Shown here in pieces: positions 31,401 to 34,975 of a stretch of 64,000 bases of DNA. The stretch is from the IMG/VR virus record IMGVR_UViG_3300048575_000503. One strand, written 5' to 3'. The first letter of the stretch is position 1; every line of letters begins with the position of its first letter. The notes under the pieces were generated by a model. The model saw only the letters and a program-made list of their open reading frames with translations, was not told where the DNA came from and did no database searches. Source of the DNA: a virus. The position numbers and the translations under genes are program-made.

Positions 31401-31667
31401 ATGTTCGAGTGGGACGAAGACAAGCGGCGCGGCAATATCGCCAAGCACAAGGTCGACTTCGCCCGCTTGAACGAGTTCGATTTCGCAACCGCCGTTCTCG
31501 CCGACGATACCCGCGAGGACTATGGTGAGGTTCGCACCAACGCCATCGGCTTCCTCGGCGCCGCGCTCTACCACCTGACCTACACCATGCGCGGCGAGAC
31601 CGTTCGCGTCATCAGCCTGCGCAAGGCCACCCGACAGGAGATGAAGTACTATGTCGACCACATCTGA
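31401..31667 (+). CDS. brnT: BrnT family toxin
   Basis: FEWDEDK...NIAKHKVDF, DYGEVR..AIG, RVISLRKA..E. Confidence 0.92.
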   Translation: MFEWDEDKRRGNIAKHKVDFARLNEFDFATAVLADDTREDYGEVRTNAIGFLGAALYHLTYTMRGETVRVISLRKATRQEMKYYVDHI

Positions 31668-31989
31668 CCGCGAGGAAGCCAAGGCGCGCGCCCTCAAGGC
31701 GCTGGCCGAGATGACCGACGAGGAAGACGCCGCGCTGACGGCGGCGGCCAACGCCGATCCGGATGCGCCGGTGATGGACGATGCGACCGCCGCCCGGCTC
31801 CGGCCGGCGACCGAGGTTGCGCCCGAGCTTGTCCGCCGGCAGCGTGGCCAGCGAGGTCCCGGCCGCAAGCCGGCCAAGGTGCTGGTTCCCCTTCGCCTCG
31901 AGCCCGACGTGGTCGAAGCGTGGCGCAAGACCGGCGCCGGATGGCAGACGCGCATGGGCGAAGCGCTGAAGCGCGTCATCGGGCAGTAG
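31651..31989 (+). CDS. brnA: BrnA family antitoxin
   Basis: RGPGRKPAK...LRLEPDVVEAWRKTGAGWQTRM; overlaps brnT. Confidence 0.92.
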   Translation: MSTTSDREEAKARALKALAEMTDEEDAALTAAANADPDAPVMDDATAARLRPATEVAPELVRRQRGQRGPGRKPAKVLVPLRLEPDVVEAWRKTGAGWQTRMGEALKRVIGQ

Positions 31990-31996
31990 GCGACGG

Positions 31997-33184
31997 TCAT
32001 TGATCGCCCTCCATCAGACGGCCAAGGAAAGCTGCGCGGGCGGAGCCTCGCGCGGCGAGGCGAACGACGAGAGTGCGGATCGCATGCGCTGCTTCCAGCG
32101 GAACAACTCCATTTCCGAGCATGCGAAGGCTATCCACCCTGGAGGCCAGCCCATCAGCCAGGACACAAACTGAGGGTTCAAGGTCCGGCGCTGTTGCAAG
32201 GGCGTCGTGCCAGGCGGCAACGGCTCCTGGGGCGGGAGGGAAAAGCGGCAGGCCTGCCCATCGATCGTCGGTCGCTCCTTGCCCTTCTGCCCGGTATCGC
32301 GGGTGTACTTCCCCGTTGCGACACGAGGCGTCATCCAGCTGGCCGCCATCGCCGGCAATGGCGCTCCGCCGGCCCCGAAGCTCATGTTCGGGCCACCTTT
32401 CTCCCCGTCCGATGCTCGCGGGGTAGACCAGAGGTGCGCCACGAAGTTCGGCAACTGGTCGAGATGCAGCCGCCCCGTCCCGTTCGTCAGGTGTTCTGTC
32501 CCGTTCGCGCCCTTCAGGTCTCTCGCCGCCGGCGATGGCCACATCTTCCCGGCCATCGCAGCGACGGTGTCCTCCAGACGCGAGTTCGAGGGATCCATTC
32601 CACGTCGGGCAGATCCGGGCTTCGCCATGGTTTCCGAAGCCCTCGCCGTCGGCCACGCCGAGAATGAAGACGCGCTCCCGCTCGTGGCTCGCACCAACTT
32701 CCGACGCCGAGAAAAGTCCTCCCTCAACCGCGAAACCCAATCGCTGTAGGTCTCTGCGGACGCGGTCGGCGCCGGCTCGCTTGCCCCTGGCCGAGAGCAT
32801 GCCCGGCACGTTTTCGATGAGGCACCACCACGCGCGCGATTGCACGATGATCCGCCGTGCGGTTGACCAGAGATCGCGGGGGTCATCGGCGCCGCGCCGC
32901 CGGCCGGCCAGACTGTGCGGCTGGCACGGGATGCCGCCAACGACGCCATCCACAAGGCCGCGCCATGCCCGGCCGTCGAAGGTTCTGGCATCGCTCCATA
33001 TAGGTGCCGCATGAATGGCACCTTCCTGCATCGCCGATACCAGTCGCGAAACCGCGAAGGCTTCCCTCTCCACCAGACAGACGCTTCGAGCAGCTGGCAT
33101 CGCCAGGTCCAGTCCGAAGTCGAGCCCGTAGCCTCCGGTGCAGAGGGAGATGATGTTGATGGCAGGCCGGGGATATAGAGCCAT
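31997..33184 (-). CDS. C5 cytosine DNA methyltransferase (motifs I-VIII and X)
   Basis: Motif I LCTGGYG, IV GGIPCQP, VI ENV, VIII HERERVFI, X LRMLGNGVVP. Confidence 0.9.
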   Translation of the reverse strand: MALYPRPAINIISLCTGGYGLDFGLDLAMPAARSVCLVEREAFAVSRLVSAMQEGAIHAAPIWSDARTFDGRAWRGLVDGVVGGIPCQPHSLAGRRRGADDPRDLWSTARRIIVQSRAWWCLIENVPGMLSARGKRAGADRVRRDLQRLGFAVEGGLFSASEVGASHERERVFILGVADGEGFGNHGEARICPTWNGSLELASGGHRRCDGREDVAIAGGERPEGRERDRTPDERDGAAASRPVAELRGAPLVYPASIGRGERWPEHELRGRRSAIAGDGGQLDDASCRNGEVHPRYRAEGQGATDDRWAGLPLFPPAPGAVAAWHDALATAPDLEPSVCVLADGLASRVDSLRMLGNGVVPLEAAHAIRTLVVRLAARGSARAAFLGRLMEGDQ

Positions 33185-33189
33185 GTCAT
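32014..33189 (-). CDS. Alternative-frame ORF within the MTase gene; probable partner subunit carrying motif IX
   Basis: 391 aa open frame, ATG coupled (ATGA) to upstream stop; four W-x-[TS]-[PA] repeats; LNPQFVSWLMGWPPGW. Confidence 0.65.
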   Translation of the reverse strand: MTWLYIPGLPSTSSPSAPEATGSTSDWTWRCQLLEASVWWRGKPSRFRDWYRRCRKVPFMRHLYGAMPEPSTAGHGAALWMASLAASRASRTVWPAGGAAPMTPAISGQPHGGSSCNRARGGASSKTCRACSRPGASEPAPTASAETYSDWVSRLREDFSRRRKLVRATSGSASSFSAWPTARASETMAKPGSARRGMDPSNSRLEDTVAAMAGKMWPSPAARDLKGANGTEHLTNGTGRLHLDQLPNFVAHLWSTPRASDGEKGGPNMSFGAGGAPLPAMAASWMTPRVATGKYTRDTGQKGKERPTIDGQACRFSLPPQEPLPPGTTPLQQRRTLNPQFVSWLMGWPPGWIAFACSEMELFRWKQRMRSALSSFASPREAPPAQLSLAV

Positions 33190-33761
33190 TCGGTCCCCTC
33201 GGTGCTCTTGCCGGCCGGAGGACAGGCGCCGCCGGCCGTGTCCGTCGCGCTCTCCCCGATGCAGCCGGCCCTCATGAAAATGGCGTTGAGGCGGGCGCGG
33301 CTCGGTGCCGAGAGGTAGTAGCCGACGCCATGCTTGTTGATGATCGAGACGCTGTCCTTTCGCGTCGCTGCCCGGATCGCGGTCAGCTGCTTGCGCAGGA
33401 CGCTGTCGGATCCGGTGCTCGTGAAGCGATCGATTGCCTCCTCGGCCGGCAGGAACTCGCGGTCGAGGAGCTCCAAGAGCAGGTCGGCGCGGCGCCCGGC
33501 CAAGTCGTAGCGGGCGAGGAGCACGCTGGCTCGCGTCGGCCGGATGACTTGTTCGGGAGGCGGCGAGGCACCGAACCCCGGGCGATCGTCGAACCGCGTT
33601 CTGAGCCAGTCCGGCGCCGGCGCTTCGGCGATGAAACCGTTCTTCAGCGCATCGTCGACGATCATCTTGAGGCGCCCCCGGTCGAGCCGGAAGGCGCGGG
33701 CGATGCAGCCGAGCGGCACCCCTTCGCCGGCGAGGGCGGTCACGTAAGTCTCGATTTCCAT
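33186..33761 (-). CDS. Winged-helix DNA-binding protein
   Basis: C-terminal OmpR-like wing (VLRKQLTAIR...SIINKHGVGYYL). Confidence 0.7.
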   Translation of the reverse strand: MEIETYVTALAGEGVPLGCIARAFRLDRGRLKMIVDDALKNGFIAEAPAPDWLRTRFDDRPGFGASPPPEQVIRPTRASVLLARYDLAGRRADLLLELLDREFLPAEEAIDRFTSTGSDSVLRKQLTAIRAATRKDSVSIINKHGVGYYLSAPSRARLNAIFMRAGCIGESATDTAGGACPPAGKSTEGTE

Positions 33762-34975
33762 CAGGCAATCTCCCCGGCCGGCGTCTCGGCCCGAAGCATG
33801 TCGTTGAAGTCCATGCCGCGCGGCGCCGGCAGCTGGATCACGCGGCAGCCTTGCGAGACGAAGCTCGCCTCGGCCTGATCGAGCGCCTCGGTGGTGGCGA
33901 CCGGGTCGCTGTCGCCGTCGCCGAGCAGGATCACCTCCTCGATCGGCCGGGGTGCCCGGATATTCCGGAGGTTTCCGAGCGAGATGCCGCACCAGACGGC
34001 GGCGCGATCGAGAAGCGGCGAGCCGGCGAGATGAAGGGCCAGATAGACGCTGAGGCAGGTCTCTATGCCCTCGCCGAGGAACAGGCGGAGGGGCGGGATG
34101 AGATCGCCCGGAAAACTGCTCGGCTTCTCGCCGCGCCAGTCGAGGCCGCGCACAAGGCGGATGGCGCCGCCGTGCGCTTCGCCGAGGACCTTCTTCGTCT
34201 TCAGCGTCTTGCCGGTCTGCGGGTGGACGAGATGCGGCCGGCCCTTGGGGTTGTCCGCCGTGAACGCGCGATCGAACCAGGTGCGGTGGACGCCGATGAG
34301 CCGACCGTCAGCCGCCTGGATGCGGCCGAGCATCGCCGGTCCGTGGTGAATGACGGTTAGCTCGCTCCTGACCTTGCCGCCGCGCTCGACGTCGATCTCC
34401 ACGTAGTAGGGAAGGTCCGAGAGATGGCGGAGGTTCTCAACGGCCGGCGGCAGCGGCCGGATGCTGCGGTGGGCGAGATAATCGGCGATCGGCGAGTTGA
34501 CGAGAGATCCGCCCCGGCCCCAAAGCCGGTCGGCCCGTTCAAGCATATCCTGGCGGTCGGCTTCGATCCGGCGCGCCGCCCGCTCGGCCGCGGCGAGGGC
34601 ATCCGCTTCCTGCCTGCGCCGGCGCGCGAGCCGGGCTTCGCGCTCCTCCGGCGTCTCGTCACGGGTGCGCGAGGGTTTCGGCTCGCCGGTCAGGGCCTCG
34701 CAGGCTTCGACGAAGGAGACGACCTCGCCAACCAGCGCCAGCGAGAGAGCGTCGCGACCTTTCGCGCCGCAATGCCGACAGTTGAACAGACGATCGCGCG
34801 GCCGCACTGCGAAACGGTCGGTGCCGCCGCAAGCCGGGCAGGGTCCGGCCCGGTCCTTCAGCTTCTCCTGCCCCTTCTCCGGCTTGAAGCCGCAGAGCTG
34901 CATGGCAAGCTCGAAGCTTCCTGCACGCGCCCGGCTCACCCAGGCGTCGAACTCCGGATCATCGCCACGCATCAT
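33761..34975 (-). CDS. DNA primase (P4-alpha Zn ribbon + Toprim)
   Basis: GPCPACGGTDRF...CRHCG; LGEGIET; LLGDGD. Confidence 0.9.
   Translation of the reverse strand: MMRGDDPEFDAWVSRARAGSFELAMQLCGFKPEKGQEKLKDRAGPCPACGGTDRFAVRPRDRLFNCRHCGAKGRDALSLALVGEVVSFVEACEALTGEPKPSRTRDETPEEREARLARRRRQEADALAAAERAARRIEADRQDMLERADRLWGRGGSLVNSPIADYLAHRSIRPLPPAVENLRHLSDLPYYVEIDVERGGKVRSELTVIHHGPAMLGRIQAADGRLIGVHRTWFDRAFTADNPKGRPHLVHPQTGKTLKTKKVLGEAHGGAIRLVRGLDWRGEKPSSFPGDLIPPLRLFLGEGIETCLSVYLALHLAGSPLLDRAAVWCGISLGNLRNIRAPRPIEEVILLGDGDSDPVATTEALDQAEASFVSQGCRVIQLPAPRGMDFNDMLRAETPAGEIA

Follow-up and report, generated by a model that had tools for sequence, protein, structure and literature searches.

Not every C5 DNA methyltransferase is described as a single chain. 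M.EcoHK31I of Escherichia coli HK31, which acts at YGGCCR, depends on a beta chain that carries motif IX and is read from the alpha gene in a different frame (PMC2836561, PMC3404938). Fragments of monomeric C5 methyltransferases can also complement each other (PMC3404938). Long overlapping genes are described from bacteria, for example two antisense pairs of 957 and 1536 nucleotides (nt) in Pseudomonas aeruginosa (PMC8850804). The locus treated here lies in a 64,000-nt stretch of viral DNA, IMG/VR record IMGVR_UViG_3300048575_000503, and the whole of this stretch is referred to below as the window. On its minus strand, between positions 31997 and 33189, a methyltransferase gene is open in two frames over almost all of the same 1.2 kilobases (kb). 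We consider it likely, with a probability of roughly 0.7 on the strength of sequence comparison and modelling, that two co-extensive polypeptides made from this DNA form one C5 DNA methyltransferase. A search of the literature, in open-access papers only, found no layout of this kind beyond M.EcoHK31I and M.AquI.

Two open frames in one locus

Frame A (31997..33184, minus strand) is the DNA cytosine methyltransferase open reading frame (ORF) of the annotated type and encodes the alpha chain, of 395 amino acids (aa) plus a stop. Frame B (32014..33189, minus strand) lies in the +1 frame with respect to frame A and encodes the beta chain, of 391 aa plus a stop. The start of frame B precedes the frame-A ATG (33184) by 5 nt, and its end falls 17 nt before the end of frame A. 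In the sequence ATGA, the frame-B ATG (33189..33187) and the TGA of the upstream ORF overlap. A Shine–Dalgarno-like GAGGGG, read directly from the sequence (33195..33200, minus strand), is common to both starts and is spaced 5 nt from the frame-B ATG and 10 nt from the frame-A ATG. A preliminary description of the window, which named no strand, had reported a second frame on the same strand with a start 5 nt earlier, coupling to the upstream stop, the GAGGGG in common, a length of 391 aa and near-total overlap of the two frames. All of this was recovered, as were the motifs that it had assigned to each frame: I, IV, VI, VIII and X in frame A, and four W-x-[TS]-[PA] repeats with a motif-IX-like LNPQFVSWLMGWPPGW in frame B.

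The content of guanine plus cytosine (GC) in the window is 66%. When GC is plotted by codon position, third-position GC of the frame-A type occupies codons 1–190 of the gene, and the frame-B type extends from about codon 200 to the end. Upstream of its ATG, frame B also continues without a stop for another 193 codons, across the preceding gene (33190–33768, minus strand), so that the uninterrupted ORF covers 32014..33768. This extension looks like a GC-rich accident, because in most homologues frame B is closed by a stop immediately ahead of the start.

Called homologues of both frames are numerous in the databases: frame A has 1008 of them and frame B 772. Many are full-length, and most of those of frame B have 99% coverage. 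Frame A is named 'DNA cytosine methyltransferase' in rhizobia, and frame B is mostly 'hypothetical'. Because database matches are selected by frame, loci were fetched with nothing but the N-terminal 182–185 residues of frame A, so that frame B played no part in their choice. About 88 loci of 46–73% GC were usable. They come from Alpha-, Delta- and Gammaproteobacteria, Dehalococcoidia, Planctomycetota, candidate phyla radiation (CPR) bacteria and Bacteroidota, and the family includes short members of about 300 codons. Expected numbers of stops were taken from codon-order shuffles of each locus itself.

Across the catalytic region (86 loci), frame B contains no stop, against 182 expected. For the repeat region, gene extents were set by frame B; here 10 frame-A stops were counted in 88 loci against 211 expected, and all ten fall in a single copy that is shifted by a mid-gene indel (L011). 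The window gene alone has none in either region, against expected values of 3.8 for frame B in the catalytic region and 2.5 for frame A in the repeats. The third frame has 5–29 stops per gene, and frame B is open across the entire length of frame A in nearly all of the loci. Family members of 46–53% GC are equally free of stops. Canonical C5 methyltransferases (55–61% GC) passed through the same scan have 9–15 stops in the +1 frame. Dual openness is thus far beyond chance expectation. The preliminary description had named conservation of both frames in homologues as a check, and interruption of the second frame as a result that would speak against it; both frames proved to be open from end to end almost throughout the set.

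The ends of the two frames are held close together. In the 79 loci with the frame-B N-terminal motif described below, the frame-A start lies at +2, −4, +5 or −7 nt from the frame-B start. The frame-B start codon is ATG in 60 of the 79, GTG in 11 and TTG in eight, and the two stops are no more than 25 nt apart in 68. Between the window and its nearest relative (L001), every insertion or deletion is a multiple of 3. A frameshift introduced by sequencing or assembly was rejected as an explanation, given the recurrence of the arrangement in about 88 independent assemblies and these indels in threes.

Several loci depart from the pattern or extend it. Four exceptions (L011, L014, L007 (= L084) and L115) each have one indel or nonsense codon, downstream of which both contents shift together; these look like decayed copies or (long-read) assembly errors. 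A group of Nostoc loci (L023–L046) comprises short relatives of 257–261 codons and about 50% GC, in which motif X is not visible. They have 3–4 stops in the +1 frame against about 15 in the +2 frame, and may represent a partly dual-coded or differently split relative. One chromosome of a Dehalococcoidia metagenome-assembled genome (OZ252238.1) carries two dual-coded copies (L093 and L094), of 376 codons each.

Selection and content of the two chains

Selection on each frame was estimated by an OLGenie-type ratio of non-synonymous to synonymous changes (dN/dS) in 17 Rhodobacterales copies of identical length and 85–94% nucleotide identity. In the catalytic region dN/dS is 0.17 for frame A and 0.63 (0.37–0.95) for frame B, against 1.50 in a control frame C. 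The repeat region has the reverse profile, with 1.15 for frame A, 0.11 for frame B and 1.04 for the control. Where motif IX of frame B overlaps the ADG segment of frame A, both frames stand at about 0.25, and no change in the set is non-synonymous in both. At motif X the values are 0.06 for frame A and 0.37, with a wide interval, for frame B. The window's own rhizobial-type clade gives 0.27 for frame A and 0.70 for frame B in the catalytic region. Purifying selection is therefore a mosaic: it acts on frame A in the catalytic part and at motif X, on frame B in the repeats, and on both at the overlap of motif IX with the segment that precedes motif X.

The alpha chain consists of three parts, all of which, like the features of beta given below, lie on the minus strand. 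The catalytic domain (aa 1–184; 32633..33184) is delimited by Pfam and PDB profile matches, by model confidence expressed as the predicted local distance difference test (pLDDT), by fold and by dN/dS; the same DNA encodes beta aa 1–185. Within this domain the sequence contains motif I, LCTGGYGLDFG (aa 14–24; 33113–33145); motif IV, GGIPCQPHS (aa 83–91; 32912–32938); motif VI, ENVPGM (aa 124–129; 32798–32815); and motif VIII, HERERVFILG (aa 167–176; 32657–32686). The Pfam family DNA_methylase (PF00145) covers aa 10–180 only (E-value 4e-23). The domain matches M.HaeIII and M.HhaI both by PDB sequence profile (E-value 3e-24) and by fold; a Foldseek comparison with M.HaeIII (1DCT) gives an E-value of 1e-12, and M.AquIA is among the fold matches of alpha. 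In the AlphaFold model this part has a pLDDT above 90.

The second part is a linker (aa 185–305; 32270..32632) that lies under the beta repeats. It evolves neutrally, is never interrupted and is disordered in the model (pLDDT below 50). The third is a C-terminal module (aa 306–395; 32000..32269), recognized from alignments and from pLDDT values of 75–98, in which LFPPAPG...W...AP is followed by motif X and helices; the model is confident and helical over aa 310–395. Motif X reads LGNGVVP (aa 356–362; 32099..32119), conservation of its residues G357, N358, G359 and V360 reaches 90% or more in an alignment of 103 sequences, and PHROG methyltransferase profiles match alpha 343–379. Alpha thus has the attributes expected of PF00145 in motifs I, IV (PCQ), VI (ENV) and VIII, in fold, and in its C-terminal motif X. 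A conserved variable region, or target-recognition domain, and motif IX were not found between motifs VIII and X of alpha. The former is judged to be lacking because aa 185–305 are unalignable, neutral (dN/dS 1.15) and of pLDDT below 50. Across homologues alpha is unalignable all the way from motif VIII to the LFPPGP...W segment, and it is beta that is conserved there.

The beta chain opens with the motif MTWLYIP (33169..33189), in which variation falls on the third positions of frame B. Across the family this motif takes the form M(x)W[LI]Y[ILV]P, and neither W3 nor P7 varies in the 103-sequence alignment. Nucleotide differences in these first codons leave the residues of frame B unchanged and alter those of frame A, and frame B is therefore the selected frame at the extreme 5′ end. 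Further along the overprinted N-terminal half, helices are predicted with fair confidence at aa 26–88 and at aa 148–169 (pLDDT 93 for the latter). Near both stretches there is a dip in the rate of changes synonymous in A and non-synonymous in B, and the N-terminal half of beta may be more than a spacer.

The repeat region of beta (aa 176–331; 32197..32664) is set apart by dN/dS, by the low pLDDT of frame A and by the stop counts. Its four repeats are WPTA (W179), WPSP (W217), WSTP (W254) and WMTP (W285). The number of WxTP repeats ranges from 0 to 6 among homologues, and the repeats are the most constrained part of frame B. The region is presumed to be the target-recognition domain from its position, its conservation and its predicted interface with alpha, and the repeats are plausible as modular recognition units. 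Beyond it lies the motif-IX-like LNPQFVSWLMGWPPGW (aa 337–352; 32134..32181), which overlaps LEPSVCVLADGLASRV of alpha. This segment is supported by PHROG profiles, is constrained in both frames and forms the core of the predicted interface; its consensus, LNPxFVEWLMGWPxGW, is conserved across the 103 sequences. The profile phrog_1008 ('DNA methyltransferase') matches beta 84–356 at profile positions 42–282 (E-value 1.6e-21), and phrog_10223 matches the motif-IX-like segment at profile positions 38–59, just before the positions of motif X. A C-terminal helix (aa 357–379; 32053..32121), known from the complex and beta models, is encoded by the same bases as motif X of alpha and is predicted to pack on the motif I and motif X regions of that chain.

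A proposed two-chain enzyme and its alternatives

The association of the two chains was modelled with full-length alpha and beta 170–391, together with three controls, in three runs. The complex scored 0.90, against 0.01 for the best control. In calibration of the tool, 58 of 80 solved complexes and two of 110 mismatched pairs attained the same mark. The runs had at least 72% of contacts in common, and the pLDDT of the partner was at least 53. The predicted interface is formed by alpha 18–28, 46–56, 161–168, 305–320 and 334–375, and by beta 212–225, 249–254 and 333–379. Motif IX and the tail of beta (333–379) rest in the model on alpha 305–320 and 334–375 and on the motif I region, and beta 212–225 and 249–254 come near motif VIII of alpha. 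Structure prediction of the complex, one of the checks suggested at the outset, thus turned out favourably as far as model confidence goes; the result may partly reflect likeness to solved structures of monomeric C5 methyltransferases.

A mechanism consistent with these results can be outlined. (i) Ribosomes recruited at the single GAGGGG site would begin translation at one of two codons, the frame-B ATG (33189) or the frame-A ATG (33184). (ii) Alpha would supply the S-adenosylmethionine (AdoMet)-binding and catalytic domain (I–VIII), a disordered linker of about 120 aa that has no required sequence and is merely kept open, and the motif X module. (iii) Beta would supply the MxWLYxP peptide, a weakly constrained overprint, the WxTP repeats, the motif-IX-like segment and the C-terminal helix. 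(iv) Motif IX and the tail of beta would dock on the pre-X and X helices of alpha and on its motif I region, so that a complete C5 methyltransferase is rebuilt. Each protein would then be a series of functional segments joined by stretches that need only stay open. We infer that both frames are translated, that the chains associate, that both are required and that the repeats recognize DNA. Two full-length proteins with adjacent starts and one ribosome-binding site are probably the simplest account of all the features.

Several results weigh against this account. Beta has no match at a meaningful E-value in Pfam or NCBIfam. A profile search of the PDB gave as its best hit the MS2 coat protein at an E-value of about 0.1, which is noise, and Foldseek with the beta model found nothing in the PDB and only meaningless rows among the Swiss-Prot models. 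Beta alone folds poorly (mean pLDDT 62), and the account offers no explanation for the approximately 175 beta residues that are overprinted on the catalytic domain. Finally, phrog_1008 spans both frames over overlapping DNA, with beta at the positions given above, the alpha C-terminus at profile positions 288–324 and motif X of frame A at about 277–324 (cf. G005:C2:74205-74344); some relatives in this profile may be arranged differently, with motifs IX and X in one frame.

A bolder form of the two-chain proposal is advanced tentatively, at somewhat less than even odds. In this form the whole 1.2 kb would be translated in both frames in every member of the family; the products would be obligate partners whose contact surfaces (motif IX and tail on beta, pre-X and X on alpha) are drawn from the same nucleotides; the beta overprint, with its invariant WLYxP peptide at the N-terminus, would have a function of its own; and an expandable WxTP array (0–6) would set specificity or multispecificity.

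Among the alternatives, the one that survives best, although it is unlikely, is a nested beta of the kind described for M.EcoHK31I: only the 3′ part of frame B would be made, from an internal start somewhere about aa 60–190 onward, this shorter chain would work with alpha, and the openness of the 5′ part would have some other cause. Beta aa 1–175 are weakly constrained (dN/dS 0.63–0.70), some database entries start internally (P0129, for example, at the equivalent of M61), and the first 42 residues of M.EcoHK31I beta are dispensable in vitro (PMC2836561). A chain begun so late does not need the open catalytic region that the stop counts reveal in frame B (0 against 182 expected). It is also at odds with a frame-B start beside the frame-A start in 79 of 79 loci with the motif, with the invariance of W3 and P7, with first-codon variation that is synonymous in B and non-synonymous in A, and with a value of 1.50 in control frame C where frame B has 0.63.

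Recoding is less probable again. A single chain would be produced by ribosomal frameshifting from A to B after motif VIII, and perhaps back to A before motif X. The attraction of this scheme is that the constrained segments, joined in order (I–VIII, repeats, IX, X), amount to a canonical C5 methyltransferase, and that phrog_1008 and phrog_10223 hold a frame-B-like motif IX and a frame-A-like motif X in one profile. Only one of 70 loci has a slippery heptamer or homopolymer at the frame junction. Motif IX and the pre-X segment, each of them constrained, share about 11 codons, and one chain cannot contain both. A fusion, moreover, requires neither frame B open upstream, with its own start and N-terminal motif, nor frame A open through the repeats. 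The preliminary description had left the choice between a heterodimer and a frameshift-assembled enzyme. The heterodimer is favoured over the frameshift because the junction lacks a slippery site, because frame B has a conserved start and N-terminal motif of its own, and because it is open through a catalytic region for which a fusion has no use.

It is improbable that beta is translated and yet is not a methyltransferase subunit, with some separate role, such as that of a regulator or a counter-defence protein, overprinted on the gene. Overprinted phage genes often have unrelated functions, and beta belongs to no recognized family. Against such a role, alpha alone would be incomplete, without a conserved variable region and motif IX; the conserved motif of beta matches profiles named DNA methyltransferase; and the predicted interface sets motif IX of beta against motif X of alpha. 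The least likely reading, against which the comparative data weigh strongly, is that frame B is untranslated and owes its openness to chance, to base composition or to a constraint on DNA or RNA, for although long alternative ORFs are common at 66% GC and frame B does run on for 193 codons upstream, the pattern persists at 46–53% GC, the third frame and the +1 frames of canonical methyltransferases are full of stops, and amino-acid-level purifying selection is strong in the repeats (0.11), where frame A is neutral.

Setting, significance and comparison with known systems

The neighbours of the methyltransferase gene are a prophage replication module: a Toprim primase, a 268-aa ORF, a D5_N primase-helicase and, on the opposite strand, a BrnT/BrnA pair. 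The methyltransferase locus is prophage-borne and probably an orphan. The BrnT toxin and BrnA antitoxin genes (31401–31989, plus strand; Pfam E-values 8e-22 and 3e-17) lie within the module, between the methyltransferase and the D5-type primase-helicase; they converge on the methyltransferase gene and end 7 nt from the frame-A stop. Directly upstream of the methyltransferase is the 268-aa ORF (33186–33992, minus strand), which is without a Pfam family. In its listed extent it shares about 230 nt with the 3′ end of the Toprim/DUF7146 primase ORF (33761–34975, minus strand), and on account of this overlap its true start probably lies further downstream.

A search of phage records with beta 175–391 (tblastn) matched only two, both of Synechococcus phages. 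These near-identical records (PP438429.1 53290–53745 and OM868082.1 6395–6850) annotate the same stretch in different frames: one labels it a 'hypothetical protein' (frame B), the other a 'cytosine-specific DNA methyltransferase' (frame A).

Should both frames be translated, a very large family is mis-annotated, because pipelines keep one frame and drop the other, and most proteomes, like predictions of the specificity of phage and prophage methyltransferases, lack the chain by which the DNA is probably read. The locus would also be an uncommon instance in nature of total overlap on the same strand, extending over more than 1 kb and held over long evolutionary time; with translation in every member, the family would be among the longest conserved same-strand dual-coding units known. 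One ribosome-binding site with two adjacent starts would suggest a simple means by which expression of the two subunits is coupled. Segments can be separated into those selected in A, in B or in both and those only kept open, which makes the family a tractable system for the study of sequence sharing. Naturally split C5 methyltransferases are, in addition, starting points for targeted methylation tools (PMC2836561).

The P. aeruginosa pairs resemble the present locus in that dual coding there is on a kilobase scale and the second frame is under purifying selection. They are antisense, young and unrelated in function to the host gene, whereas the frames described here lie on the same strand, overlap totally, are conserved across phyla and have products that appear to be partners. 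Monomeric M.HaeIII (1DCT) and M.HhaI belong to the same sequence family as the alpha N-domain and have the same fold. In these enzymes, in contrast, all ten motifs and the target-recognition domain are found in one frame, and the +1 frames have many stops.

Among two-chain enzymes, M.AquI (CYCGRG; PMC3404938) is likewise split within the variable region, with motifs I–VIII on the first chain. Its second chain carries both motif IX and motif X, whereas here motif X stays on alpha. M.EcoHK31I resembles the proposed enzyme in being a C5 methyltransferase of two polypeptides in which alpha has motifs I–VIII plus X but lacks IX, and motif IX is carried by an ORF in another frame. The analogy with this enzyme, drawn in the preliminary description, fits the division of motifs between the chains of the window. 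In M.EcoHK31I, as compared by description only, the whole of beta is nested within the alpha gene, and it is alpha that is said to carry the target-recognition domain. In the locus described here the two chains are co-extensive, with 391 aa in beta and 395 aa in alpha, and the start of beta lies 5 nt upstream of that of alpha; the sole conserved sequence between motifs VIII and IX is on beta, alpha being an unconstrained linker there.

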